NCBI RefSeq assembly: GCF_964355755.1
Contig: NC_092677.1
Span: forward strand, 13,786,101-13,850,100
Source: Antedon mediterranea
Lineage: Eukaryota; Animalia; Echinodermata
Length of the DNA: 64,000 nt
Direction: 5' to 3'
The notes under the pieces: model-generated
What the model was told of the DNA's origin: nothing
Databases searched by the model: none
What the model saw: the letters and a program-made list of their open reading frames with translations, nothing else
Program-made: the position numbers and the translations under genes
Shown: positions 828-61,483 of the stretch, piece after piece
Numbering within the stretch: the first letter of the stretch is position 1
Layout: every line of letters starts with the position of its first letter

Positions 828-7474
<6,647 letters not shown>

Positions 7475-11700: not shown

Positions 11701-14700
11701 ATACAATAAGCAATTTATCCAATATCTTTGTACCTGATACATTAAAATTGTATTTTCCCTCTCAGATTTAGTATTAGGGAGCTTTTGATTTGCGACTACG
11801 AACCTAGGTCAGGTCAATCGATGTGTCGTCGGTCGGCGTCTGGACCTTAAAACCTTCAAACTTGTGTCAAGGCCAGGAGCGAAGACATGCGTCCCAATAT
11901 TCCCACATGCGCATAATGAACTAACTGACATAGTTTGATCGTCGATTATCAGTCGTCACAAAGCGACAGCTCTCTATTTTGGTACTTAGTATATACAGTA
12001 CCCATCAAATTCAATTCATGCACCCTCTACAGTTTTAGTGTTACATGCATATGCAGTCAACTATCCCAATACCATACTTCGGGTTGGCCAAATATGTCTG
12101 GTATTTGGAATGTGTTTGTAATGGTGAAAATCAATTTGAGACTGTTTTGAAAAAGAAAAGTCCGGTATTTGGAGAGTTTCCGATTTTCAGAGAGTCCGGT
12201 ATTGGGAGAGTTGACTGTACCATAGAACAATGAAAGGATTAATGTGACTAAATTTTAATGTTGCATTCTTTAGGGTCACATGGTGCAGGTCATCCAGATG
12301 AGACATTGACCCCACTTGTTGCCTGGGGTGCTGGAATCAACAAAGCTAGACCAGGCAATAAAAAGGACTTCCAGGACAATTTCATTGAAGGTAATCTTTC
12401 AGTGTTTTTGTTTTTTACTATAAAAATCAACATTTATTATTTTATAATATCATTTTATTTTAGTTACATTTTAGTTTTCATTGAATAATATTGATATTTT
12501 TATATAAAAAATAAATTAAATGAGAATGTTTAAACAAAAGATTTCCATATGTAAACAAACAGGAATCACTTGTCAAGTCCAAATGTTCTATGACTTTATT
12601 ATACTTTATAGATGACATTATAACACACCTAAATAAATTGTTGACATTTGATTGGATGATTGTGGGTCACATGGAATTGAATAGACTGTATTCTATTAAA
12701 CTCTGATGTCAGTGTATATTCTTGTTGTGTCTACACAGTGAAAAAAACCTTGTAGTGTCTGTAAGTGTTTGCCCCATTGCACTCATAAACATGTATTTAT
12801 TTGTATACCTACAGTGCCTTGTAATAACAATAATGATCAATTATGCTTTTTTATCCATACCAAATAAAAGGCAATTTTCCCATATTTGTTTGTATTTCTT
12901 TGTAAAAGCGAACTCATTTATACTCAACAGAATGGAAGATTGAGAACCGACGCTGTGATGTTAACCAAGCTGATATAGCGACTCTTATGGCATCCCTGAT
13001 TGGTATAGCATATCCCATGAACTCAGTCGGTGTCCTACCCATTGGCTACCTTAACATCAGTGAAGAATATAAAGCCAAAAGCTTGTTGACAAATGCTAAG
13101 CAAATCTTAGCTCAATATCAGGTAAAACATTCATTTCTGATGATGATGATGAAGTTTGGTAATGGCCTTCTACTTTCAAAACTGTTTTGTGGTCTAAAGG
13201 TCTGTCTACACTATCAAACTATTTTGACAAAAAAAGTGTGATGTGCCCAAATATGGTAGTGATATGACATCACCATGTCCATATATGGGCACATCACATT
13301 TTTTAGTGTAGACAGAGCTTTAAACGTTTTAGTTCAGTTTTCTTGATAGTTGGATGCTCTGGTGTTTTTAACTGTACATTGTTTGCAGAATTTGACAGCC
13401 TTTGTATAGTTTTTTTTTGAATGAATAAATATACATGAATATGTTTTTCAACAGACAGCAGATTTAAATATTATGTAAATGAAGCTAAACAATTTGTTCT
13501 GCACACTTTGAGAATTCTCTCATATTTCAGTTTTTTATTTTATCTGAAGGTTAAAGAAAACCATATGCGTGACACAACCCTAACTGTGTTCTTTAAACCA
13601 TTCCATTTTCTTACTGACAAACATCAGAAGTCGAAGGTTAAAGAAATTGAGAGGTACATCTTGCAAAAGCAATATGATCTTTCAGTAAGTATAAATAGCA
13701 AATATTATAGATTCTAAATTATACTAAAATAGATTTATAAATGAGGGCGTGTGGCTCACTGTGTTGCACGCTGGATTACCGATCATGAGATTGTGGTTCG
13801 AATCGAACTCTCGCCACATTGCTTATATCCTTAGGCAAGACACTTATATTAGCCTCTCTTCACCCAGGTGTATAAAATGGGTACCCGGTTAGATGAATAC
13901 ACAACTTTGTGCTAATTAATAGCTACATTGTGGGAGTATTCAGTATGTTTCCATATGTGTTAGATCCAAAAAATGATCGGGGTAATAATGCTATGTGAAG
14001 CACCTTTGAGCATAATTGTCTCTACTCCACCTAAGCGCTGTCTACACTATCAAACTTCTTATGACAAAAAAACGTGATGTGCCCATATACAGTATGGACA
14101 TGATGATGTCATATCACTACCATATTTTGGACACAGTTTTTTTGTCAAACTAGTTTGATAGTGTACCCCCAGCTTTAAATTGATCTGCAAACTTTACCCT
14201 CTACTAAATGTTTATTTTTTCTGCAAAAGTTTAAACAAGGAAAGTGATATTTTTTAATATATATTTGTGAGTAAATCGGTTTTATCATTTTCATATTCGA
14301 ATTAATTTTTTAGATGAAAGCCTCAATGGAATTGATTAAAGAATGTCTTGATGGGCTGAATTACTACCAGACTTATAACAGGTTCTTTCTAGGGTATGTT
14401 AAAGTATTGTCATAATCATTGAGATACTATAACGGCTAGAGAGTGAACTATGTGAGATTGAAGTTAAGACTGCTGTATCTGTTCAAAATATTTAGGACCT
14501 AAAAATGACCTAAAATATTACATTTATTTATTTTTGTATTTTATTTGATGTCTTTAGGCACATGTGGCCAAGAATTATCAATAGTAAATTAATCCATGTC
14601 CTATCAGATAGGTGGTAATCACAGGGGTCGTTTTTTAAACCAGTTCACCGGGGTAAACTTCAAAGTGCGCACTGTCAAACTGTGTACACAGGAACTACAT

Positions 14701-17700
14701 TTTATAGTGTATTGGTGTATCTGATTGGTTGATTTAAGTCAGCCATATTTCGTGTTAATGTCATATTTGAGCCTAATGTTGAATTGCTCGAGATACAATT
14801 TATATGTTTTAAATCTGTTGTTTTTATTATATTTTAGGGCTAGCATAGCTTGTGGATACATTGGCTGGATGCTTTACATCTTTCAGCATCTTCTACGTAA
14901 CCATACTAGCATCACTGTCAGTAGGCCTTCCAGCCCTACACGAGTGCTGTCGCAACAAGCTCTGGATCTGTTCTTCGCAGGCCTAGCTATTACCATAGCC
15001 ATTCTGCTCTACTGTCAACATTCTCCTATTGTTTACTATGTGTATGTCTGTCTTCCACTACCTTTGTGGTATCAAGTTCTTAAAAGGTACTGTATCTCAA
15101 TTTTTTTACTGTAGTATCATAGACAGATTCCGTGATACAGTAACACATTGTACAGCATGTGATACCTGTATCATAAGAACCATGTCATATGTGATGATGC
15201 ATTAAAAAAATTATTCCATAATACAGAATTTACATGTGACACACATGTTTATACAGATCTTGCCTATGATACTGAACTATTACAATGTTTTGTAAATACA
15301 TTACCGAGAACCAAAGGATATTGTCATTTAATACATTGAACTATAAAACTTTAATTTGTTTGGGAACACTATTGGGCAATATTTTTCATAGTAGATGTAT
15401 ATGATAAAGAAATGATGTCAATATTATCAACATTTTATCAATATATGAGTTTTTATTTAAATATAAATTATTATTTTTTTTAGAGTTGACATATTGAAAC
15501 AGATGTTTCAGTACATTAAATCCAATAATATGCAATTACAAATTATATGTTATATTGTAATTGCAATTGGGGCTTTGGAAGTGTTGGTGTTGAGTCTGTT
15601 TTATCGTGAAGTCATCTCCTTAGGCTTAGTAAGCCTAGCCGTCTGGGCACTATTGTCTTCGGATGTTCTACAAAAGAAAGTAAGTCTGATATACTGTAGC
15701 TAGGTGGTTAAGATGCTTGGGTAAAATTTTGTCCAGATTTTTTCTCTTGATAAAAACAACTCCACTTTAAAAAAACAATTCAAAGAATTTGTTTATGTAG
15801 GAAATCTTGTATGTACGTTTGTCTTGAATGGATTGTCACCTGTATAGGATATACAAGTGGGTTGTGCATGGTTTTTTTAAACTAGACAAGAGGACCAGTA
15901 AAATTACATTTTTACTGGTCCTCCACTCCATTTACTGGTCCTCCACTCCATTTACTGGTCCTCCACTCTATTTAATGGTCCTCCACTCCATTTACTGGTC
16001 CTCCACTCCATTTACTGGTTCTCCACTCCATTTACTGGTCCTCCAGTCCATTTACTGGTCCTCCACTCCATTTACTGGTCTTCCACTCTATTTACTGGTC
16101 CTCCACTCCATTTACTGGTCCTCCACTCCATTTACGTGTTCTCCACTCCATTTACTGGTCCTCCACTCCATTTACTGGTCCTCCACTCTATTTACTGGTC
16201 CTCCACTCCATTTACTGGTTCTCCACTCCATTTACTGGTTCTCCACTCTATTTACTGGTCCTCCACTCCATTTACTGGTCTTCCACTCTATTTACTGGTC
16301 CTCCACTCCATTTACTAATTCTCCACTCCATTTACTGGTCCTCCACTCCATTTACTGGTCACAGAATATGGGTATAATAGGGAGGCCTTCAATTAACTAA
16401 AAATCAGGTACTAATTTGTTTTTGACATGTTGTACTCCTGATATGTACTTTTTAACAGGTATTGTTAGGATGGATTATGTCATGTCTAATTTTAGCAATA
16501 TTTCCCATGATGCCTGTTGTTGGCAGAGAGCCAAATCTTCAACTTGTGTAAGTGTTCTTTGCTTTTTTTTATAAATGATTAAAACTGATAATATGACAAT
16601 AGAATAATAATTCATACATTGTATAAAGTACAAACAAGTTAGGAACCATACAATATATTGATTTCAGATCCATTCAGAAATTGAACTTCTATTTTAATCT
16701 AAATTTAATTTTTCTTGCTTGTAGATTCCAGCGATATATATTAAATGTATGATTATTGATATGCACTTTAATTACTGATTAAATAATATTGGTTAATTAA
16801 TTTTAAAAATATGGCTGCATGTAAGTGTCTATTGTATTTGTAACATGTGTTTAAATTGCATTTTAAATTATCATTTTAAAAACTATCTACAATAAAACAA
16901 TTTATAAACATATGTTAATTTATGTTTTTTTTTTGGCCTGTTTTCTATTCATTAAAAAAGAAAAACTATCCACAATAAAAAGATGTGTAAGCATGTTAAT
17001 TTATGTATCTTTCAGGTCTTTGGCCAGTTTTCTATGCATAAGTGTATTCATCATCGCTAGTATACTTAAATCCAGGTATTTGTTCATCTCTGGCATTTCA
17101 ACTATCAAAATAGTGCAATTTGTTATACTCTGCCTTGCAATATTCATCGTCCATTCAACAAGTAGAAATATACAAGCGAAGGAAGGACTTCCCGTAATTA
17201 ATCAAGTCCTCAGTTGGATGATTTTATTGTTGTCTTTCGTGCTGCCGCTTTTAACCTCTGACCTCATAGTTGAAAGGTTATTCAGCATAGCATCTGCATT
17301 TGTTTCTGTATATTTGCTGATGACTACAGCGTATCCTTTTGATATATTTTACTAGAAAAGATATATGCATTTTCAAATGTAGTTTAAAACCTTCCCAATA
17401 CCTTTGCAGTCATTTTGATGCCCCATGTAGATTGGATGACGTGTGCAATTACAAGTATGTATATAATAACAAAAACACTCTAGTATAAATCCTGTTTTGG
17501 GACACCCCTATTCAAGAATACACCCCTATTCAAGAATACACCCCTATTCAAGAATACACCCCTATTCAAGAATACACCCCTATTCAAGAATACACCCCTA
17601 TTCAAGAATACACCCCTATTCAAGAATACACCCCTATTCAAGAATACACCCCTATTCAAGAATACACCCCTATTCAAGAATACACCCCTATTCAAGAATA

Positions 17701-20700
17701 CACCCCTATTCAAGAATACACCCCTATTCAAGAATACACCCCTATTCAAGAATACACCCCTATTCAAGAATACACCCCTATTCAAGAATACACCCCTATT
17801 CAAGAATACACCCCTATTCAAGAATACACCCCTATTCAAGAATACACCCCTATTCAAGAATACACCCCTATTCAAGAATACACCCCTATTCAAGAATACA
17901 CCCCTATTCAAGAATACACCCCTATTCAAGAATACACCCCTATTCAAGAATACACCCCTATTCAAGAATACACCCCTATTCAAGAATACACCCCTATTCA
18001 AGAATACACCCCTATTCAAGAATACACCCCTATTCAAGAATACACCCCTATTCAAGAATACACCCCTATTCAAGAATACACCCCTATTCAAGAATACACC
18101 CCTATTCAAGAATACACCCCTATTCAAGAATACACCCCTATTCAAGAATACACCCCTATTCAAGAATACACCCCTATTCAAGAATACACCCCTATTCAAG
18201 AATACACCCCTATTCAAGAATACACCCCTATTCAAGAATACACCCCTATTCAAGAATACACCCCTATTCAAGAATACACCCCTATTCAAGAATACACCCC
18301 TATTCAAGAATACACCCCTATTCAAGAATACACCCCTATTCAAGAATACACCCCTATTCAAGAATACACCCCTATTCAAGAATACACCCCTATTCAAGAA
18401 TACACCCCTATTCAAGAATACACCCCTATTCAAGAATACACCCCTATTCAAGAATACACCCCTATTCAAGAATACACCCCTATTCAAGAATACACCTCTA
18501 TTCAAGAATACACCCCTATTCAAGAATACACCCCTATTCAAAAATACACCCCTATTCAAGAATACACCCCTATTCAAGAATACACCCCTATTCAGGGGGA
18601 CACTTCAAGAGGAAACCCCTATTCAGAGGGACAATCCTATTCAGGGGACACCCCTATTAAGAGAACACTTCCCGACAAACAAGCAAGAAGCAACATATTA
18701 CAATTATTTAACTTTCTTGTATATAAGGTTTTATTGTAACTGTTTGTATTGTATGGAGTGAGTGCAGTTCTTTACTTCTCATTCCTGGTTATTTTTCATT
18801 GATCACCGAATAAATATTATTATTATTATTATAACAATACTCCTATTATGATTACACTTTGTTGGGTTCCGGATGTGTCCTCTTAATAGGGTTCTAGTGA
18901 CATATTTAAAATATATTTTACCCACAAAGTTAAGTTTGATTTTCATGTGATGAAAGTTTTTAATTTACTATATATTTTGAAATTAATATGTACAATAAGA
19001 ATAGTACTGTATATTGATGATAGATTATCCTTTACAAATACCAACAGACATGAGGGTTTATTTTGCCTTGCACTGTGCTTCACTCTTTTTTCATGGCTTC
19101 TTGTGGAACTGGAGCTATGTGGGTCATCCAACAAGGTTTTTATTATTTTAATTTTGTTAACGATGTAAATGACAAACAGGAGCACTTATATTTATAGATA
19201 ATGTATTAAACATGACAAAATGAGTGGATTTAGAGATATTCATGTTGACCCTGGTTCCCCCCTCCTTTTCGGAGGATTCTTATCGGTCAAGCAATTGTCC
19301 ATCTTAACTGATATAAAAATGTGAATTTCCTGAAGAAGCCAACAACACTGCATAGTTTTGAGCCGTTGCTGCCTGCTGCTGATACCTTACCATTAGAAAT
19401 TTTATAGTATTGTTTTTTAGTTTTAGTTAACTCATCTCTCTTTAGAATTATAAAGTCTCTCCTTTAGTTGATTCCTATAGGTTTAAAATAGCCTCCTTGC
19501 TAGACCACCAATCTTAAAGATGTATTGTCCCCCAAAAACCTGAAAGACTTCGAATAGGCCATTTTACAGTTTTAATAAAGTTATTCACTTCTGTAGAAAA
19601 AAAAAATCCAAAAAATTATTTCACAACATAAAAATACAAAAGAAATTCTAACCAAAAAGCAATTGTCTGACAGACAATGGAGGTGTATTTTGCTCTAAAT
19701 TACATTTTTTTCCGATCCAGTTTTTTTAATAACTATTATGTAACATTAAAATGTAGACATTTTTTTAGAAAATAATATTCATGTTTTATAATTCCTTTAT
19801 TTTGTTTTCTTTTTAGCTGTGTCATCTTCAGTTTGAAAGACGAAAGCTTCTTGACGATGGTCCGTCTCGGCATTTATCGCTCAGTGATATACGTGTTGGT
19901 TACTTCTTCATCTTTTTTCTGCTTACTGCTTATTTTGGAACTGGAAATATAGCAAGTATCAACAGGTAACAGATAAACAGTATACATATAGTGTATTTCA
20001 GATTCTATATTTGATTCATTTCAATACCACATTAAAAAAATTTCCCTAACTTTCAGTGCTGTGACAATATTGGTTCCATATCGGATCTTATAGGAATAAT
20101 CGGTAATACAGCATCTCATGTGTATCACATGTTGTGCCTGTCTCATGTAAGGTTTAGAGTTACATATGGTCTATGGTCCTCACTGAGGACAAAATATTAA
20201 ATATTAATATTATTAATATTAATATTAATATTAATACAAAATGATACTAGGCGATACATGTGAAACATATGGAATGCTGTATTATCAAATATTCCTATGA
20301 TACTGGAAAAATATATAGATACAATACCGAGAATCGGGTGTAAAAAATAGTCGAGAACAATGTTTAGATGATCCTATTCCTATCAAAGTTAAGTACTTGG
20401 TTGGTTTAATTCAAATGTTATATTTTAATGTGTGAGCCTCTTCTGAAACATATCAGAGATATATCGGAATTACATCAGTTTTGTCAGAATTAACGACACA
20501 CAGGTATAAGAGAGTTGACCAATCAAACGAGAATTTACTCGTTTTGTTAGCTGTCCTCACGTTTGAGAACATCAGGCCATCATTGACTGTTCACATTTGC
20601 GTGAGAGAAACCAACAATTTATGTGCTTCATATATTTTATTATTTCATTTTACTTTTTAGAAAAATATAATGATTTGGATCATCTTAAGTCTATTGTATG

Positions 20701-23700: not shown

Positions 23701-25467
23701 TGTTAAATTATAAGATTTGCTTTTTTGCAAGTCATTCTAATGAGGTCATTGATGTGTTTAAATATTAGGTGCACCATTGAGTTTTAGGGTATGTTCAGAT
23801 CCATGGAGTTATGCTTTCGTATCGCAAGCAATGTCGTATTATAATTGGCGTCTTAACAGAAAAGGGTTCAGATTTGCCTAACTAACGCTTTCGTTTCAAA
23901 CTGAAGTGTCACCATTGGGGGCGAAAATCTGGTATGCAGGAGTAAATTTGATTGGTTAGAGGTCAAAATCACTGGTGTTCACTAATCTTGTACCTTGAGC
24001 TGTCGTACAAGGTGGCTTCCACTAATCTTTAAAAACTGCTACATAAAACACTGAAAAAAAAACTCCACAAAAACCCACAACACCTATCTATATTGCATTC
24101 CAATCCCGCAGAATAAAAAAAAATTAAATTCATTATTACAGATTGCTCTGTTATTTGTGCTAGTAACTTGCACATTCCAAGCCATCCATCTGGTGCGGTC
24201 AGTTCCAATGTCCAGTCTGTTCCTGCTGGTTCTACTCATGTCAGATGCCATGGCGTTACATTTCTTCTTCCTTGTTAGAGATACAGGTAGCTGGCTTGAG
24301 ATTGGCACTAGGTAAGTTCAGATTTTGGTATTGATTAAAGTAGTCACATGCAGAATATATAATTTAGTTTATAATACTCTTGTACATACAGTTCCCATTC
24401 ATTCATTCATTTGTGTACTCATTGATGCACTCATCGATATACTAATTTTTTCATTTATGCACTCATTCATATATTCATTTTTCATTCATTTATGCACTCA
24501 TTCATATATTCATTTTTCATTCATTTATGCACTCATTCATATATTCATTTTTCATTCATTTATGCACTCATTCATATATTCATTTTTTATTCATTTATGC
24601 ACTCATTCATTCATTTATGTATACAGTCATTATGTACTCATTCATTCATTTATTCATTCATTTACTCATTCATGAACTCATATATTCATTCTTGCACTCA
24701 TTGATTCATGCATTCATTCATGCACTCATTCATATACTCATTCGTTAAATACTTATTCATTCATTAATGCACTTGTTCATGAACTCATTCATATACTCAT
24801 TTTTGTACTTATTCATTCATAAATACAATCATTCATGTACTCGTTCGTGTACTTATTCATTCAATTATACAATCATTCATATACTCATTCATTTACTTAT
24901 TTATTGATTAATGCACTCATTCATGTACTCATTCGTGTACTCCTTTATTCAATTATACAATCATTCATATACTCATTCATTTACTTATTTATTTACTTAT
25001 TTATTCATTCATTAATGCACTCATTCATTTACCCATTCGTGTACTCATTCATTGATTTATACACTCATTCATTGATTCAGTAATTCAATTATGCACTCAT
25101 TCATATACTTATTTACTCATTCACTAGTTCATTTATACACTCTTACTCATTTCATTTTTGTACTCACTCATTTTCTCATTAATCCTTCATTTATTTACAG
25201 AATATTGTAGTTATTACATCTGTAATAAAGCAATGTATTTTATTAACTAAACTAATAATATCAAACTAATAGTGCTAAATCAAGTTGTAACCATTCTAGT
25301 TCTTTTTTTTGTAATCACTAAACTCTCTTTTTTTTTACAGCATCAGCCACTACGTCATCGTAATGACTATGATTCTATTTGTCCTACTGCTTATGCTAGT
25401 ATCGCAAATATTCATAGCGCCACCTATCACTCTGGTTCGATCGATGAGAAAGTTTCATAGGCAGTAA
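8745..25467 (+). CDS. PIGN: GPI ethanolamine phosphate transferase 1 (PIG-N/Mcd4), 18 coding exons, ~929 aa
   Basis: Exons: 8745-8968, 9676-9797, 10266-10364, 10787-10893, 11224-11479, 12274-12390, 12931-13121, 13550-13684, 14314-14393, 14838-15086, 15484-15679, 16459-16547, 17016-17330, 19048-19135, 19817-19965, 22645-22720, 24142-24311, 25341-25467; 2790 nt, phases consistent. Motifs [98 protein letters not shown] and many TM segments. Confidence 0.97.
11508..11623. mobile_element. MITE family A copy (left end missing)
   Basis: Core plus right TIR. Confidence 0.75.
11776..11975. mobile_element. MITE with AGGGAGCT/AGCTCTCT ends and ATT duplication
   Basis: Imperfect TIRs; ATT at 11773-11775 and 11976-11978. 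Confidence 0.55.
12054..12217. mobile_element. Tc1/pogo-type MITE (CAGTCAACT...AGTTGACTG, TA target)
   Basis: TIR CAGTCAACTATCCCAATACC / GGTATTGGGAGAGTTGACTG followed by TA. Confidence 0.72.
13198..13319. mobile_element. MITE family A copy
   Basis: TIRs plus core; flanks TAA/TTA. Confidence 0.85.
13745..14012 (+). mobile_element. tRNA-derived SINE with CORE-like central domain
   Basis: A-box-like TGGCTCACTGTG, B-box-like GGTTCGAATC, then CCTTAGGCAAGACACTT...CACCCAGGTGTATAAAATGGGTACC; homologous to the minus-strand copies at 51222 and 52514. Confidence 0.78.
14034..14174. mobile_element. MITE family A copy (reverse orientation)
   Basis: TIRs plus inverted core; contains a TACAGTA insertion at 14088. 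Confidence 0.8.
15911..16360. repeat. 20-bp minisatellite (TTTACTGGTCCTCCACTCCA)n, ~22 copies, PIGN intron
   Basis: Direct reading; scattered point variants. Confidence 0.97.
17331..19047 (+). other. U12-type (minor spliceosome) GT-AG intron of PIGN
   Basis: 5' site GTATCCTTTT (17331); branch-like ATCCTTTAC (19027-19035) 12 nt before the end of CAG; no polypyrimidine tract; joins TT-A-HEGLF in frame. Confidence 0.85.
17503..18660. repeat. 18-bp minisatellite (CACCCCTATTCAAGAATA)n, ~60 nearly perfect copies, inside the U12 intron
   Basis: Direct reading; degenerates at the 3' end into GGGGACACCCCTATT units; source of the NRGVFL/RIHPYS pseudo-ORFs. Confidence 0.98.
20065..20335. mobile_element. 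Degenerate foldback/MITE
   Basis: ATAGGAATA..TAATACAGCAT..TCACATGT inverted to ACATGTGA..ATGCTGTATTA..TATTCCTAT; similar pieces at ~15115-15310 and ~51800-51970. Confidence 0.5.
21989..22123. mobile_element. MITE family A copy
   Basis: TIRs plus core. Confidence 0.8.
24395..25200. repeat. Degenerate (TCAT/ATTC)n-rich simple repeat
   Basis: Continuous cattcatt/actcattc motifs in the last PIGN intron. Confidence 0.9.
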
Positions 25468-26002
25468 TGAGGTATCAAAGATGTGCTATTTGTGTGTTTT
25501 CACTTTTATATCGTTTTCATACTAACAGCTAATACAATTTAATTAGAAATCATATCAAAATTATTGTACTGCAGTTACTGCAGTAACTGCATTTTTTACT
25601 GCAATATTGTATTGTTTCAATGTATATGTTTGGGGTAGTCACTACAAGTCACTTGGTGCTAGATAATTGCATATAGGAAAGTTTGTAGTAGTATTACTAC
25701 AACTACAGTAGGCCTACAGTATAGTAATTTTGACATGGTCCCTTACAATTCTAACAATTTTTGTATATTTTTTGTTTGTCTTTTGTGGCGTTAACCGCTA
25801 TTTTATTCATTTCATCTTCAACAGATTAATACAATTATTGAATACTTCTGTGATAAGCATAATAATAATAATAACTATTTCATTGTTATTCTTACTTTTG
25901 TTTGGTTTATATATTACAACTGAGGACTAGTGCTGTTCCGCCGTACCACGCCGAGAATGTTAAAGAGTCGCTATCCAATCGAGTTCGAACAATACCATGA
26001 AA

Positions 26003-26074
26003 GCCCCAGTGGTCTAATGGTTAGGATATCTGCATATCAAGCAGGCGGTCCGAGTTCGAGTCTCGGTTGGGGCG
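26003..26074 (+). tRNA. tRNA-like gene, anticodon ATC (Asp-AUC), copy 1
   Basis: 72-nt cloverleaf: acceptor GCCCCAG/TTGGGGC, D stem GTCT/GGAT, anticodon stem TCTGC/GCAGG with loop ATATCAA, T arm CCGAG-TTCGAGT-CTCGG, G73, then T5 terminator. Function unproven. Confidence 0.7.
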
Positions 26075-26366
26075 ACTTTTTCTCATTCTCACAGATTTCC
26101 TCATCTTTATCGTTTCAAATTAATTAATTAAATTTCAGTATATTACCGGGCGGTTTATAATTAATGTTCTTTGCCTGATTTGTTTATATATATATAAGTA
26201 TCTCTTCAGAGATCCCGCCTCGTGAATAAAAATACTGTAAGATGAGGGCGTATTAATTTGATCTCTGATGCGCGTGCGTACAACTGAGGACTAGTGCTGT
26301 TCCGCCGTACCACGCCGAGAGTGTTAAAGAGTCGCTATCCAATCGAGTTCGAACAATACCATGAAA

Positions 26367-26438
26367 GCCCCAGTGGTCTAATGGTTAGGATATCTGCATA
26401 TCAAGCAGGCGGTCCGAGTTCGAGTCTCGGTTGGGGCG
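26367..26438 (+). tRNA. tRNA-like gene, anticodon ATC (Asp-AUC), copy 2
   Basis: Identical to copy 1 by eye; followed by ACTTTTT. Confidence 0.7.
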
Positions 26439-26730
26439 ACTTTTTCTCATTCTCACAGATTTCCTCATCTTTATCGTTTCAAATTAATTAATTAAATTTC
26501 AGTATATTACCGGGCGGTTTATAATTAATGTTCTTTGCCTGATTTGTTTATATATATATAAGTATCTCTTTGGAGATCCCGCCTCGTGAATAAAAATACT
26601 GTAAGATGAGGGCGTATTAATTTGATCTCTGATGCGCTTGCATACAACTGAGGACTAGTGCTGTTCCGCCGTACCACGCCGAGAATGTTAAAGAATCGCT
26701 ATCCAATCGAGTTTGAACAATACCATGAAA

Positions 26731-26802
26731 GCCCCAGTGGTCTAATGGTTAGGACATCTGCATATCAAGCAGGCGGTCCGAGTTCGAGTCTCGGTTGGGG
26801 CG
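26731..26802 (+). tRNA. tRNA-like gene, anticodon ATC (Asp-AUC), copy 3
   Basis: As copy 1 except T25C, which turns G10.U25 into G10-C25. Confidence 0.7.
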
Positions 26803-27581
26803 ACTTTTTCTCATTCTCACAGATTTCCTCATCTTTATCGTTTCAAATTATTTAATTAAATTTCAGTATATTACCGGGCGGTTTAGAATTAATGTTCTTT
26901 GCCTGATTTGTTTATATATATAGGCCTATATATATTTACATTATGTTATTTTATCAATGTTACTGTTCTTAGAATCAGAACATTAATATTTCTTTTCTGT
27001 TATCCACTTTTTTTCATAATTTTCTAATATTTTTTTTTTTATAATAATTCTCAACTTCTAAAATTGTAAATACTTAACAAATAAATAGGCTACAATTTTT
27101 GTATAGTTACAAGTAAAACTTTTCTGCCAATTTCAGGCATGAAAATAAAAGTTGCTTGTTTTCATTTAGTAACCAAGAAATGGGTCACTTGTGTGCTTAT
27201 CTTTTGAGATGACTTTCTAAAAATGTTTTAAACTAATGTTAATTAGCGGTTGAGTACTATTTGTGAAATTATGCCAAAGAGTTTTTTTTTTCAAATAATA
27301 AAAAATGAATAATAGAAAACACTTGAAAGCACAGATAAGACAATATGACACACGATAACAGTTTTGTTTTAAAAGTCACAGATAACTTTTAATTGGAATT
27401 TGTTACTAAACTATTTAATACCTTATTTAAAGACAGATAAATATAGAGGCATGAGTATTTTCACAAGTTTGGTTCTATAATAATTATTGTTATTAATATC
27501 ATCCAAATCTCAAAATGGATTTTAAATTTTAGTCAGCAAATCAGGCCAAACTATTCTATGATGTTTTGTTTGTTCGTGTAA

Positions 27582-51221: not shown

Positions 51222-51508
51222 AATAATAATAATAATAATATCCTGGATTTATCTAGCGCCTAATGTTGTGAAACCTCTAAGCGCTAAACATTATTACCCA
51301 AGTCATGGGAAACTTACTCCCACAATGCAGATAGTAATCAGTAAGAATTGTGTCTTGATCATAACCGGGTTCCCATTTATACACCTGGTGGGGAAAGGCA
51401 AACGTAAGTAAAGTGTCTTGTCTAAGGATAGAAGCAATGCGGCGAGAGTTAGATTCGAACCTCGATCTCACGATGAGTAGTCGAACGTCCAAGACAATGC
51501 GCCACACC
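51222..51508 (-). mobile_element. tRNA-derived SINE with L2-like tail and (ATT)n end
   Basis: Same head and core as 13745; tail AGCGCTTAGAG...GGCGCTAGATAAAT...ATTATTATT. Confidence 0.8.
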
Positions 51509-52513
51509 AAATTGTTGGCGTCATATTAATAAACCGAAATGAATGCATCAATACATTCCATATTTGGTTGAAATCATGCCAACCCACTGCCAGTCGTCAT
51601 TAATCGCGGATAAAGATAATCGAATGTTCAATGCAAATACTATTTTACGGTACCTGGAGATCAAGTTTAAAGTTCAATAAAATATCTACGATCCTTATAA
51701 GTCCTGCATCATTATTTCAAGTGGGCTGCAGAATCACCCTTTGAAACCCTGGAATAATCCGCCCAATTCAAGTGCTGTATCTCAACTTATGCTAGTGATA
51801 GTGTACAGTATCATAGTCAAATGCCATAATACAGCATTTCACGTGTATCACATGAGCTGCCTGCATATCATTTATCCGGTTAGGGTCTATGATACATTCG
51901 TGGCATGTGAAACACATGTGACTTTGTATCAGGGATTTTGCCTATTGACACATATATAGTATCGTGTATCTATCGACTACAACGTGACTAAGTTGGGCAT
52001 AACTTATATTGGATATATACATATATATTTTATATTTTATTTTTATATATAACATCACCTGTAAGTTGGAACATTGTTGTTGTTGTTGGAATGTTTATAT
52101 AAATAAATAATAAATATGTCTAGTCTTATTTATTTTATGGTTCACTACAATAAATCATTTAATTTATTTTATCGAAAATTCGGTTCGTGTATACGGTACA
52201 TTTTGACAGTGACTCTCGAATAATCGTCGTACCCACCTTCTTCCTCGTTGATACTTCAGACGTGAATTAACTCCTATATGTAAGGAAATGTCGACACATG
52301 CATCTTGAATAAAGTACCGCTTCTTAGAAAAAACTTTAGTCAGATTTTCCCATTTTCTTTTGTTAATCGTGATATTGATAAAGGAATATAGATATAATGA
52401 ATACAATAATCTGCGAACTTGGCCTAGATTTTACAATACTTTGCCAATATTCTGATATCATCATTGTTTCACAGTATTGTAGCCTAATAGACAATTTTTA
52501 ACCAAGCCTACTA

Positions 52514-52790
52514 GTAATAACAATAATAATAGCGCCTCATGTTGTGAAATCTCTAAGCGGTCATTTTTTTGCATCAAACACCTATGGAAACATACTCCCA
52601 TAATGCAGCTAGTAATCAGCGCAAAGTTGTTTCTTGATCTAACCGGGTACCCATTTATACACCAGGGTGGAGGGAGAGAGGCAAACGTAAGCAAAGTATC
52701 TTGCCTAAGACTACAAGCAATAGGGCGAGAGTTGGATTCGAACCACGGTCTCACGATCAGTAGTCCACCGTCCAACACACTGCGCCACAT
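52514..52790 (-). mobile_element. tRNA-derived SINE, same family
   Basis: GGTTCGAATCC B box, CTTAGGCAAGATACTT core, (ATT)n-like tail. Confidence 0.8.
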
Positions 52791-54175
52791 ACCCTTATCT
52801 GAGCCACATACTGTATCAGTATGAGTTGAATAAAGTAATTTGTATGTTTTAAAAATGAAATGCTTTTATTTCTTCATCCATATGATGTATTTTCAATAAA
52901 ATAAAAAAGAAATTTCAAAATTTATGAATCGCTAATTAGTTCTACAGGTATATAGTCTAGGTTAGACCGAAATTAATAAAATGATACATATTTTGTGTGG
53001 CGTTTCATACGTATAATACTTGAGCTCACACTTTCAGACAAAAATCAAAACGCCGACTGGTGTATTCTCATAAAAAAGACAATAACTACAGTCTATTTAT
53101 CACTAGTCTGATTTCTCCAAACCAAGTCTTACAATTTTATAAGCTACCGTATAGTATCGTCAGCAAAAAAACTGGAGCTGTACCAGGATTTGAACCAACA
53201 TGTGTGAGCAAGCATGTCAACCAACAAGCCACAGTGCCACTACAAACAAATCATAACTCAGGTTTAGGAAGAAAATATATTCTAAATTTAATCTTTATTT
53301 TTCTTTAAAAAATATCCTTCATTAGATTTATTTTAATATCATTTGTCAACGAATACGAAGGTCAATGTTGATCTGTAACACTTTCTTCAACTAGTGAAGA
53401 AACGGCACGGGTGTCGTAAATCATTTGTTGATATGTTTCATTTTTTGATAATAAAAGATATAAATAGTTATTTATTTTATCAAAAAGGTATGAAGGGATT
53501 ATGAAACATGGTTATTGCATTCACTGGTGATGAATTAAACAATGGAAATATTGTATATATTTTAACATAAAATATTGTTTTGATTATTGAACATTACATA
53601 AACGATGCAATAAGAATATTGGTGTCATAATTTTAACATTTTGCACATTTTGTTGAGTCATAATAACATAAACTGAGGAGCCCAATATTATAATACAACA
53701 ATTGGAAAGCAAGAGGCTTATGGAAATAAAAGAAAAATATTTTCTCTTTTTTTTGTACTTTGAAAATACAAACAAAGTATATAGAAATGTCAGTATCTTT
53801 GATTTGCTGAAAATAACTATAGATTTAAGTAGTTGAATTATTAGTTGTTTTTTTTTTGGCGAAATTTTGAAATATAAAATGGTTTTAAAGTAATGTTTAT
53901 CTAATTGTTATTACATAATAATGTAATTAATAATAAATATAATTATAAATGTACTATTGAAATGTATTTACAGTGGCAGTGAAGTTATTCATAAATCAAC
54001 ATAACCTAAAAGGTTTAAACCAGTCGAAACGAACCTTGTAGGCCTATTTAAAAGGACGAGACTGGCTTCATTTTTTGAATCGTGGAAAGGGAGAAAAAGG
54101 CCTTTTAGAAAATTTTCCCAATTGAGGATCCATTCTTCATGTTTCTTATCGCTTTCTAAATTTCCACATTTGTCA

Positions 54176-57712: not shown

Positions 57713-60316
57713 TTAGCGTGAAGAAAAGAAATGTCAAGATATCATAAAGTACGTCAGTGCCGAATTTATGTTGAAAAAGAAGGTTCGAGGTTTTAAAAAT
57801 TACTCAACTTAAACAAATATCCTATCTTTTTGAATGCAAATGTTCGACATTTAGTGGTTGATTTTGATCTGCCTATGAACTAACTACTGCATATGCATCT
57901 ACTTTCTTAGTCTGGGTTCCAGATGAAATTTTGTCTTAATATTAGTAAAAGATAAATATTTTGCCACATATGGCGTTTCAGATGTATACTACTTGAGCTT
58001 GGATGTTTTCAGACAAAAAATCGAAATACAAACAAATAAATAAAAAAATAAAGTCTACTACTTCCTATACATCTGCCTCTACGTCTCCTCAACATAAACG
58101 TATTAATAAACAACATTTCGACTACATACAGCTACTGATACTTTATGTTAGAGCACGTGGAGGAGGTTGGAGAGGGACGTTTCTTTGCCGGTTTCTTAAA
58201 AAATGATAAACGAAAATCATTGTTTTTAATCGTGCATCCGCCATATATCACGTGAATAAAGTATAGCATTTATTCAATATTGATTCATTATTATTGAATT
58301 CGTCATTCGACGAAACAGATCCAGTGTTTAATGGAACTGCTGTTCTGAACTGTTGCGGAACTGTAATTGATAGTCAACAACAACATTTATCTAGAAACAG
58401 AAATAAAAACAACATACATTAATTATAATAAATAGGTAATTGCTATCATTACATTCATATACCGAGGATCCGTTACATGACAAGACCTAACGTAACTTCA
58501 ATTGTATAGTTTCTTATATCCCTACTTGTATTAGTATGCCTATACGGGTTGGATTTTAAATTAGAGGATGAATTACTGATTCATTTACAGTTTGAACGCA
58601 CTTTTGTAATACACAGTTTTTGTGAGGTAAAGGAGGTTACGCGACTGGATTATACTATCAGTAACACGACCTTGATAATAAAGCACAATTAATATATGTA
58701 GGCGTTATTGGTATAAAACCATTTAATACTTTAAATCGCAAGGCAAAATAAAACAATTTGAAGGGATCGTTTTTCGCAGAATATGTTATAAGAAAATATT
58801 CCAGTTAAAAACATGGGTGTATGGTGGGTGTTAATATGGGACAGTATGTTACGGAAAAGATCGAATTGGATTTCACTAGACCCGTGTCCAACAATAATCA
58901 TCATTTGTTGGACACTTCACTTTTACAACAGGGGCACACTTTGATGATAAAGGTGCGTCCAATTAATAACTTAAAATAACATAACAAAAAAAAATACAAA
59001 ACAATAACATGTGTGACATACACAACATAAAAGTCATACAAAAAATATAATATTATTAGGCCTAACTTAAAATGAATTGAAATAATTGTAAAAACAAAAC
59101 GAACAAGAAATCTTCTGTGTATACTGTATTATTAACTATTCAACAATCCTCTTGATTACGTAACTGCAGTATCGGATGTAAGTACTTAATTATCGATTAT
59201 ATGAAATTCAGTATTGATACAGTAGGCCCACTGTAGACGTCCAGTAGGCCTATATATGCGGTAGTATTATCGGATAGGTAGTGCAGTGTGCATCGGTTAA
59301 ATGTACTGCAGTATAGGTACGGTAATGTTATAAGCTATAAGGTACCACACAATATATCGGTTATATACACATACTGTATTAATAAAGGATAACATTCAGA
59401 TTTTCACCTCGCTGTGACGTAAGAATAATACGGAAGTTAATATAATTTTGCGAACGGTATTTTGTTGATCGTGGTTGATATATTGATTGACAATAATAAT
59501 CGATATTTCTCCGGTGCTTTCTCTTTTATCCGCCGTTGATGTCTAAATTAATCTTTGCTTATCTCAGAATGTCTTCCGCAAACCATAATTACATTTCTTG
59601 TTTTCGGACATAAAATTGTAGAATTACTTTGTCAAGTTTGGCATGGTTTTCTTGTCATGTCACTCTTTTTATTGCGGTAATTACTACCTCGATCGGTGGG
59701 CCTAAAATACTAACCCTTGTCAAACCTTAGGGAGAACTTTTCTAAGATTATCACTGATACGCAATTGTATGATTTCCTTCGTAATCAGATAATTCTTCTG
59801 AATCACACATATGTTGTCCCCAGACACGTCGTTCGCTTATTAATAACAACTATTAATTTTAAATAATGTATTTATTGCTGTAATTGCATGGTATCCTAAA
59901 CCACATGACTTGATTTATATTTGTTTTAATCCTACTATTTTTAAACTATTTCTTAAGGAAGTGTTTTTATATCCACCAGGTGATTTTATTTTCGTGTCAT
60001 GAACATTCTGTTTATTTGCATCAGTTTTATGATACAGAATTGTTGGCGTGAAAGGAACTAATGAAGCAGATCCTCCATTTATTTTTAGAAGTTTATTTCA
60101 GTCACAAGATTCTCCTGTTTTAAAGTCTGCAAGCTGAATAATAAGGCCTCGTAACATAAAGCTTAAAATAACATTTAAACTAAACCTACAACAATTTCAG
60201 ACTAGTAAACTCAGATTTTATTTGAATATATATAATTATATATATATATATATAATCTACTAAGTAAATATTAGTATTAATTAATTTAGAATTTAAATGT
60301 TATGGTTTTTATCTTA

Positions 60317-60468
60317 AGCTCTATCTACACTATCAAACTTTATGTGACAAAAAATGTGATGTGCCTATAATGGACATGATGATATCATATAACTACCGTA
60401 TTTAAGTATATCACTACCATATTTAGGCACATCACACTTCAAACTAGTTTGATAGTGTAGACAAAGCT
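60317..60468. mobile_element. MITE family A copy (reverse)
   Basis: TIRs plus core. Confidence 0.85.
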
Positions 60469-60591
60469 TAAGTATTTTTTAGATCTTTGTTTTCTGGACA
60501 CCCATCATTGGGTTGGATCTAGCATATTAAGATCTAAGATATTTTAGTTTAGTACACTATTAGTCTTCTTTCATCGGATCTAGAAAACTAA

Positions 60592-60750
60592 AGCTCTGTC
60601 TACCATATCCAACTAGTTTGATCTGACAAAAAAAGTGTGATGTGCCCAATGGTAGTGATATACCCAAATATGGTAGTGATATGACATCATCATATCCATA
60701 TTGGGAACATCACATTTGTTTGATAGCAGATTGATAGTGTAGACAGAGCT
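60592..60750. mobile_element. MITE family A copy
   Basis: TIRs plus core. Confidence 0.82.
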
Positions 60751-61483
60751 TTAGACTGAAGATATTGTAGTTTTCTAGATAATAGAAACCGAAAATATAT
60801 TTTTTTCTTAGTTTTATATTTTAGTTTTTTAACACTATTTTTCATTTTTGATTGGATTACCAATATTATTTTATTGTGACGGTTCCGTTATGACAGACTG
60901 CATGTGGTTTGACGCGAGGAAACGTAATAAGTTGACACTTATTAATTGCATCCTATCATTTAAATTGATAAGATCACTTTATTAATTGCGAAGACTTTTA
61001 TTTTCTATTTATTAGTCCGTTTTAACATGAATTATCGCTTGTTTTAACTAGGCATAGGCCTACGCATATTTGAATATATCGAGAGTTGAGTAATCCAATT
61101 CGATTTGATACGATGCTACACACATAGGCCTATCACAAGTATTAAAGTATATCAATTTGCCTAATAGACTATATAGGTCCCATTATTGACTTCCTCTCTA
61201 TGAAATCCTTAAGACCTATTAGATAGCATATAGTGTTTCTATCTGAAATCTTGCCAATTTTGTGTTACATTTCTAACGTTTTTAATCATTTTCCATAAAT
61301 TACAAATCTCAAATGTGTAACTCAACACTCTGTGCATGATTCCGCCACTATTACCGCCAGCGTTTGTCTGTCCTGCAATCTTGAAAATATGTCATTCTCA
61401 AAACGAGGGTGACTCATAAATTGGTACGTTAATCGACCGAGCATCCATGCGATGAAAACATGCCACATGTGTCTTTTAAGAAA

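Follow-up and report, generated by a model that had tools for sequence, protein, structure and literature searches.

Several described systems resemble, in part, the locus analysed here. Animal non-LTR retrozymes are described as protein-free tandem repeats of 150–450 bp with a GC content below 45 %, present in thousands of copies, whose monomer RNA is self-paired and for which dependence on Penelope-like elements and ligation by RtcB have been proposed (PMC7229834; bioRxiv 10.64898/2026.07.22.740005). Penelope-like elements (PLEs) of the Naiad type are reported to form partial tandems, 5'-truncated copies and inversions with a (TA)n bias, while non-autonomous Chlamys elements are arranged head-to-tail and short non-autonomous Penelope elements are already known (PMC8557442). 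Metazoan TSEN, in turn, is reported to act on substrates with a 3-nt bulge and a 6-nt ruler (PMC6614914), and together with RtcB it yields stable circles, the tricRNAs, from such introns (PMC4536317, PMC6614914). Finally, high-copy tRNA look-alikes with A34 in two-codon boxes have been described that pass tRNA finders (PMC8450103, PMC5372738), and the meaning of such prohibited A34 tRNA genes has been called unknown (PMC5372738).

The window examined here, a 64,000-nt stretch of the Antedon mediterranea genome (NC_092677.1, positions 13,786,101–13,850,100), contains at 25915–26922 a tandem array for which TRF gives a period of 364 bp, 2.8 copies and 98 % matches, as the first-pass annotation had proposed. 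The array lies 447 bp downstream of the PIGN stop codon at 25466–25468 (about 450 bp in that annotation), and one PIGN exon matches an A. mediterranea protein over 77 residues with 100 % identity, the last exon and stop agreeing with the C terminus of that protein. The unit is short, of low GC content (40.7 %), tandem, present in many copies and devoid of an ORF. Inside every unit, a TA run precedes an 81-bp segment, the B part, which is missing from copy 1; the monomer boundaries (Table 1) were set by joints that lead from the TA end to the start of the B part in contigs of public sequencing runs. We read the array as one insertion of a non-autonomous retroelement that was copied into TA microsatellites by Penelope-type enzymes, with a probability of about 0.6. 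The tRNA look-alike inside it is likely a promoter and RNA-processing signal, not a decoder. The element works like a non-LTR retrozyme, yet it is neither a retrozyme, nor a conventional SINE, nor a canonical tRNA gene.

Table 1. Coordinates of the array, its parts and the neighbouring PIGN exon within the window
Feature	Position	Strand	Basis
PIGN last coding exon (context, outside the element)	25341..25468	+	matches C terminus of a PIGN protein
TA run left of array, likely remnant of (TA)n target	25908..25914	.	sequence
Copy 1, likely 5'-truncated: leader, tRNA-like module, trailer, TA run; without 81-bp B part	25915..26197	+	layout inferred
Monomer 2, likely full: B part (26198-26278), leader, tRNA-like module, trailer, TA run	26198..26561	+	
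Monomer 3, likely full; final TA run 26913-26922	26562..26922	+	
Leader antisense arm (leader bases 39-76)	25953..25990; also 26317-26354, 26681-26718	+	alignment, folding
tRNA-like module 1, anticodon ATC (26036-26038), U25	26003..26074	+	
tRNA-like module 2, same sequence as module 1	26367..26438	+	
tRNA-like module 3, C25 = family majority	26731..26802	+	
Self-complementary ATAT (positions 32-35), predicted central BHB helix with next copy	26034..26037; also 26398-26401, 26762-26765	+	sequence, constrained folding
T5 Pol III terminator-like run	26077..26081; also 26441-26445, 26805-26809	+	sequence
Predicted "intron" of 364 nt, from A38 (copy 1) through A37 (copy 2)	26040..26403; likewise 26404-26767	+	inferred from folding and PMC6614914

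The three modules are called tRNA-Asp(atc) by ARAGORN and score 55.5, 55.5 and 57.9 bits against Rfam RF00005 (E 3e-9 to 7e-10 for the window), with 21 of 21 standard stem pairs formed in copies 1 and 3, copy 2 being the same as copy 1. The first description, of three near-identical cloverleafs with A and B boxes, G73 and a T5 run and with a sole difference at position 25 of copy 3, is thereby supported. The sequence reads A32, A34, U35, C36, A38 and G73. A cloverleaf, A and B boxes and a terminator, as expected of a functional tRNA-Asp, are present, and a GTC anticodon and the Asp identity set are absent, the departures being the ATC anticodon, A38 and a majority C25. The yeast Asp identity determinants, the set used for this comparison, include G34, C38 and U25. 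The earlier argument that G10.U25 acts as an AspRS determinant falls, because C25 is the family majority: it accounts for 99.5 % of depth in run X1, from the same organism, and for 97 % in run X6, from a close relative with several flank differences, while U25 is private to copies 1 and 2. The tRNA body presumably combines Arg-, Gly-, Glu- and Val-like parts. An upstream site considered as a second B box was rejected: it lies within the antisense arm, and position 26714 is polymorphic (C/T).

Abundance was gauged from the summed contig depth of public runs, which overlapping contigs inflate and which gives orders of magnitude, not copy numbers; the contigs came from six of 24 listed runs. On this scale, depth in X1 is 2.5–6.5e5 over leader, tRNA and trailer and about 1e5 over the B part, versus 19–25 on the unique flank; in X6 it is 0.7–1.8e6 over the unit versus 176–242. 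As an order-of-magnitude reading, the unit is present in thousands of copies. Amplification covers the whole 364-bp unit rather than the tRNA alone, and the head-to-tail joint from 26278 to 25915 occurs in three of the four runs compared (X1, X6 and X9). The suggestion of a selfish, amplifying tRNA-mimic element is thus strengthened by the thousands-fold depth and by the tandem and 5'-truncated copies, while that of stand-alone genes is not, the tRNA being a module of a co-amplified unit.

Variation among copies was tabulated for four runs, completely at a threshold of 3 %, and in none of them does an anticodon-loop variant (26762–26768) reach that level. Random anticodons, which the first-pass annotation regarded as the mark of an inert repeat, are therefore not a property of the main family. 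The family is young and homogeneous, so young that the invariance of the seven loop bases is expected without selection. In X6, variable sites number 11 of 72 in the tRNA, a figure inflated by diverged relatives that map preferentially to it, versus 14 of 277 elsewhere in the unit (Fisher p 0.008); the tRNA module is not more conserved than its co-amplified flanks. Four of seven stem variants keep the pair (A24G, G43A, A52G, C72U) and three break it (G23A, U27A, G71A), and no two-sided compensation was found among the seven. A27 faces G43 or A43 in 12–15 % of the depth, and G71A, G23A and G73A also segregate. There is no sign of host conservation of a tRNA gene here.

Two subfamilies can be discerned, one defined by the linked variants G24 (26754) and A27 (26757), at about 12 % of X1 depth, and an older one that carries AAGGTTCC after the anticodon stem. 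Among loose-end strings from diverged relatives, all eight that show the loop have ATAT at 32–35, with C (three), G (two), T (two) or A (one) at position 36, although these strings are mostly low-agreement majorities (0.54–0.63) from overlapping contig sets and therefore weak. Three further occurrences lie near the majority sequence, may be trace DNA and were left out of the independent-species count, namely a single circular contig of 345 letters in X9, at a depth of 3.7, the sequence in X23, where depth is about 10 and one loose end is identical with an X5 loose end, and the part of X21 that covers the unit, at a depth of 6–13.

These data bear on whether the modules form a working tRNA-Asp(AUC) family maintained by host selection, which would read GAU and possibly misread GAA after deamination; we consider this highly improbable. 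The intact cloverleaf with its boxes and T5 (55–58 bits) and the loop free of variants at the 3 % level are what such a family would show, but its majority sequence lacks G34, C38 and U25, the pairs at 27–43, 23 and 71 as well as G73 are unstable among copies, and position 36 varies among relatives. A functional tRNA-Asp-AUC has been reported in Streptomyces (PMC9262613), whereas thousands of copies with near-identical flanks are described as marking a repeat, and ATC for Asp is flagged among the unexpected anticodons (PMC8450103). The A34 deaminase hetADAT is reported to disfavour a pyrimidine at position 35 (PMC5372738), which makes miscoding through I34 less likely than first supposed. The proposed non-canonical family with Glu-to-Asp miscoding is further disfavoured by a tRNA no better conserved than its flanks, the three pair-breaking variants of seven and the private U25, and the stand-alone reading is also weakened by a leader arm that, by prediction, disrupts the acceptor, D and T stems (below). 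A transcript ending at the first T5 would lack that arm, so that a mature tRNA-like by-product is possible.

The ends of the copies bear on how the element spreads. The array is preceded by TATATAT and terminated by a TA run, and TA also stands before truncated starts, as expected of the microsatellite targets of PLEs. Single-contig joints in X6, among the 15 of 64 listed, lead from the TA end (26903–26922) back to 26562/3, 26652, 26708, 26729 and 26835; at least two of those listed change strand, and at least two lead back from inside the trailer (26835, 26844) instead of from the TA end. In X21, a unit copy begins at 26654 after a TA run. Neither an empty target site nor a duplication of the target was seen. 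Partial tandems, 5' truncation and inversions are thus all found in the window layout together with these listed X6 joints. Since a fixed (TA)n 3' end with varied 5' starts, partial tandems and inversions is the layout described for Naiad, we favour a Penelope-type mobilization, and a Penelope-type partner is likely. The unit shares with Naiad and Chlamys PLEs and the non-autonomous MRC1 the (TA)n target, the 5'-truncated partial tandem, the occasional inversion, the absence of a canonical hammerhead and the multicopy head-to-tail non-autonomous form, and differs from them in having an internal tRNA module and no ORF; these elements are also described as having 3' likeness to an autonomous family and a 30–40-bp one-sided tail (PMC8557442).

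The window also holds a 5'-truncated Penelope-type fragment at 2911–3567, with a GIY-YIG-like ORF (3058–3513), flanking inverted arms of 150 bp that are 100 % identical, and a hammerhead-like stretch near 3525–3565. A Pfam search of this fragment returned no match, while the Atlas comparison yielded GIY-YIG clusters (0.94) in which 11–30 % of members carry the family. No end shared between the unit and an autonomous PLE was found in a comparison with this one window fragment, whose end differs.

The same amplification pattern could arise at the DNA level, in a minisatellite or a Helitron/Helentron-type central repeat that had picked up the head of a SINE or a tRNA, which would then be a passenger, and A32 and A34 founder accidents spread by amplification. 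Co-amplification of sequence before the Pol III start and past the terminator is as such a repeat would have it, as are a tRNA no better conserved than its flanks (the difference noted above running in the opposite direction) and the lack of a detected autonomous partner; near the start of the leader there is a CTAG accompanied by a near-hairpin, and a local inverted duplication can create an antisense arm. On the other hand, TA-run 3' ends combined with many 5' starts and inversions (among the 15 of 64 X6 joints listed) are not accounted for in this way, nor are a strand-asymmetric fold and G.U-keeping variants, which point to selection on the + strand RNA. At this locus, Helitron/Helentron termini were not found, the CTAG lying off the array ends and bounding terminal inverted repeats being absent. 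A DNA-level origin is accordingly rather unlikely.

A conventional tRNA-derived SINE, with a tRNA head and a TA tail, that built up the tandem by inserting several times into its own tail, is improbable. A tRNA followed by a trailer of about 110 nt and a TA tail is SINE-like, some X6 joints restart at 26729, beside tRNA +1, and other dispersed repeats occur in the window; however, leader and B part reach the same order of X6 depth as the tRNA and could not be copied from a monomer transcript starting at the tRNA. An element of this kind should begin at the tRNA head and read on, whereas here 169 bp upstream are co-amplified and T5, directly after the head, separates it from the body. The earlier statement that this is not a typical SINE head holds, because 88 + 81 bases outside the tRNA travel with it. 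The A34 two-codon-box look-alikes among tRNA-derived SINEs share with the unit its high copy number and its passage through tRNA finders, but the unit's tRNA is internal, with T5 at once after it and co-amplified sequence before it (PMC8450103, PMC5372738).

The favoured retroelement is closest in its general properties to the animal retrozymes, with which it shares all the traits listed at the outset, the Penelope-like dependence and the RtcB ligation being proposals in both cases. It differs from them in carrying a tRNA-like module with A and B boxes and an antisense arm, and no homology of the unit to pLTR was found. Membership fails because the hammerhead is absent: Rfam gave no hammerhead match in the unit, and the CTGANGA found at unit position 6 is not accompanied by a stem II-GAAA within 70 nt, so that a hammerhead element was ruled out by Rfam and the core scan.

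The leader contains an arm that is complementary to the T arm, the 3' acceptor strand, T5 and the trailer (26054–26090), with 34 pairs of which 4 are G.U. Its alignment score exceeds that of 2000 of 2000 shuffles in copy 1, 1996 in copy 2 and 1956 in copy 3, although the corresponding duplex-folding test is weak (5, 5 and 77 of 500 shuffles equally good). With the leader attached, the predicted probability of the acceptor, D and T stems is 0, while that of the anticodon arm is at least 0.94. The fold of leader plus tRNA has a z score of −5.7 on the + strand versus −2.9 on the − strand, and all four polymorphic antisense-arm sites keep pairing as G.U (weak, about 1 in 16 by chance); this strand asymmetry and these variants point to selection on the + strand RNA. 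The circular monomer folds at −99.6 kcal/mol, better than 150 of 150 shuffles of its non-tRNA part. For a duplex between the trailer and the B part, 79 of 500 shuffles did equally well, which is not significant.

In a two-copy transcript, running from tRNA n +1 to the T5 after n+1, the single leader is predicted to pair with the 3' half of copy n, and a cross-copy acceptor stem forms with a probability of 0.88–0.91. If the anticodon arms are swapped as well, positions 32–35 of both copies form a helix of 4 bp from which C36-A37-A38 bulges on either side, giving a 3-4-3 bulge-helix-bulge (BHB). The predicted cut sites after A37 coincide with the canonical intron position 37/38, and the intron of 364 nt equals one element. 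The BHB pre-tRNA lies 20.3 kcal/mol below two self-folded cloverleafs and 3.9 kcal/mol below a self-folded first tRNA, and 0 of 30 shuffled spacers reach either margin. The form nonetheless stands 3.6–4.4 kcal/mol above the unconstrained optimum, with an ensemble probability of about 0.01–0.05, and both anticodon hairpins favour local folding in the two-copy prediction. For a transcript of the whole array, the cost rises to 11.5 kcal/mol for the BHB and to 33 kcal/mol with the cloverleaf, so that the splicing model depends on Pol III starting at +1 and reading through T5. T5 is normally a good Pol III terminator. It is the only run of four or more T on the unit's + strand; a depletion of T runs was considered as a sign of read-through and dropped as not significant (P=0.13).

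The predicted two-copy geometry agrees with the 3-nt bulge and the 6-nt ruler reported for substrates of metazoan TSEN (PMC6614914). It shares with intron-containing pre-tRNAs and tricRNAs the intron at 37/38, the 4-bp helix, the 3-nt bulges, the proximal pair at 32 and, potentially, the TSEN and RtcB route to a stable circle, and differs in that the predicted intron is a whole element formed by two tandem intron-less copies and in that the proximal pair is A-U, where tricRNAs have C-G (PMC6614914, PMC4536317). In fly reporters, tricRNA yield fell when the proximal pair was A-U, and also when the helix was fully paired (PMC6614914). If U33 is fixed and 32–35 must form a self-pairing helix, A34 and a complementary 32/35 pair are forced while 36 is free, which would account for both oddities of the loop, A34 and A32. 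The strange anticodon would thus likely be a splicing signal rather than a decoder. A palindromic 32–35 also occurs in some natural tRNAs.

A possible life cycle can be outlined from these folds. Pol III would start from the A and B boxes and at times read through the first T5, whereupon the 3' half of copy n would be masked by the antisense arm and an acceptor stem would form between the two copies. The transcript would fold like a pre-tRNA in which the 3-4-3 BHB closes a 364-nt intron at 37/38, TSEN would cleave after both A37, and RtcB would ligate a unit-length circle, leaving a spliced tRNA-like by-product. A Penelope/Naiad reverse transcriptase priming on nicked (TA)n could then copy round the circle and produce partial tandems, the TSEN/RtcB route standing in for the retrozyme hammerhead. 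The whole chain including splicing is put forward tentatively, at clearly less than even odds. Similarly doubtful, for now, would be an animal retroelement class that uses the host tRNA-splicing machinery instead of a ribozyme, in which a pair of tandem copies would make up a single pre-tRNA, the intron may be the element, the circle the template and A34 a by-product of the self-pairing splice helix.

What is new at this locus is a leader that is an antisense copy of the tRNA 3' half and the self-complementary AUAU at 32–35. In a literature search that covered few subscription papers and not Repbase, neither a Penelope-dependent tandem element with a tRNA nor a retroelement processed by TSEN was found. 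If the splicing is true, it would represent a novel use of tRNA processing by a parasite, natural tricRNA-like circles would gain a role in retrotransposition, and some prohibited A34 tRNA genes would have a structural reason. Even without splicing, such elements likely inflate tRNA annotation counts in crinoids; 11,013 tRNAs are predicted in the feather star Glyptometra (PMC13079724), to which the 364-bp family may conceivably contribute.

In run X5, guessed to be RNA, the PIGN contig begins at the exon edge 25339 and the intron is without depth, which is RNA-like behaviour. X5 covers the whole unit at a depth relative to X1 of 0.09–0.33, versus 0.97 for a MITE-like neighbour and 1.6 for the exon; contig depth in this run cannot gauge expression and is no evidence either way on the unit. 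The neighbour, at 25549–25745 in the 3' region of PIGN, is part of a MITE-like repeat that reaches a depth of about 3e4 in X1 and whose loose ends show a terminal motif with its reverse complement near 25735–25745. A scan of metagenomes returned one locus, an unrelated tRNA-Glu(ttc) on a prokaryote-like contig, a genome scan returned four loci without the tRNA, with matches limited to 21–26 bases and in about the number expected by chance, and a viral scan for the unit returned 0 loci. A 936-letter contig of X21 (depth 101) matches 26596–26646 with 9 differences and then diverges; these 51 bases are the end of the B part and may be a module common to another abundant repeat family.

Other repeats in the window include very homogeneous minisatellites in PIGN introns, at 17502–18594 (18 bp × 60.7, 99 %) and 15911–16360 (20 bp × 22.5, 92 %). 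Dispersed copies at 51277–51525, 52461–52865 and 13741–13973, which are 78–79 % alike and unrelated to the 364-bp unit, look like what we take to be a conventional tRNA-derived SINE. One further dispersed repeat of about 130–170 bp with internal inverted similarity has at least 10 window copies, at 4335, 6082, 11510, 13194, 14035, 21985, 49041, 56525, 57600 and 60310–60755.
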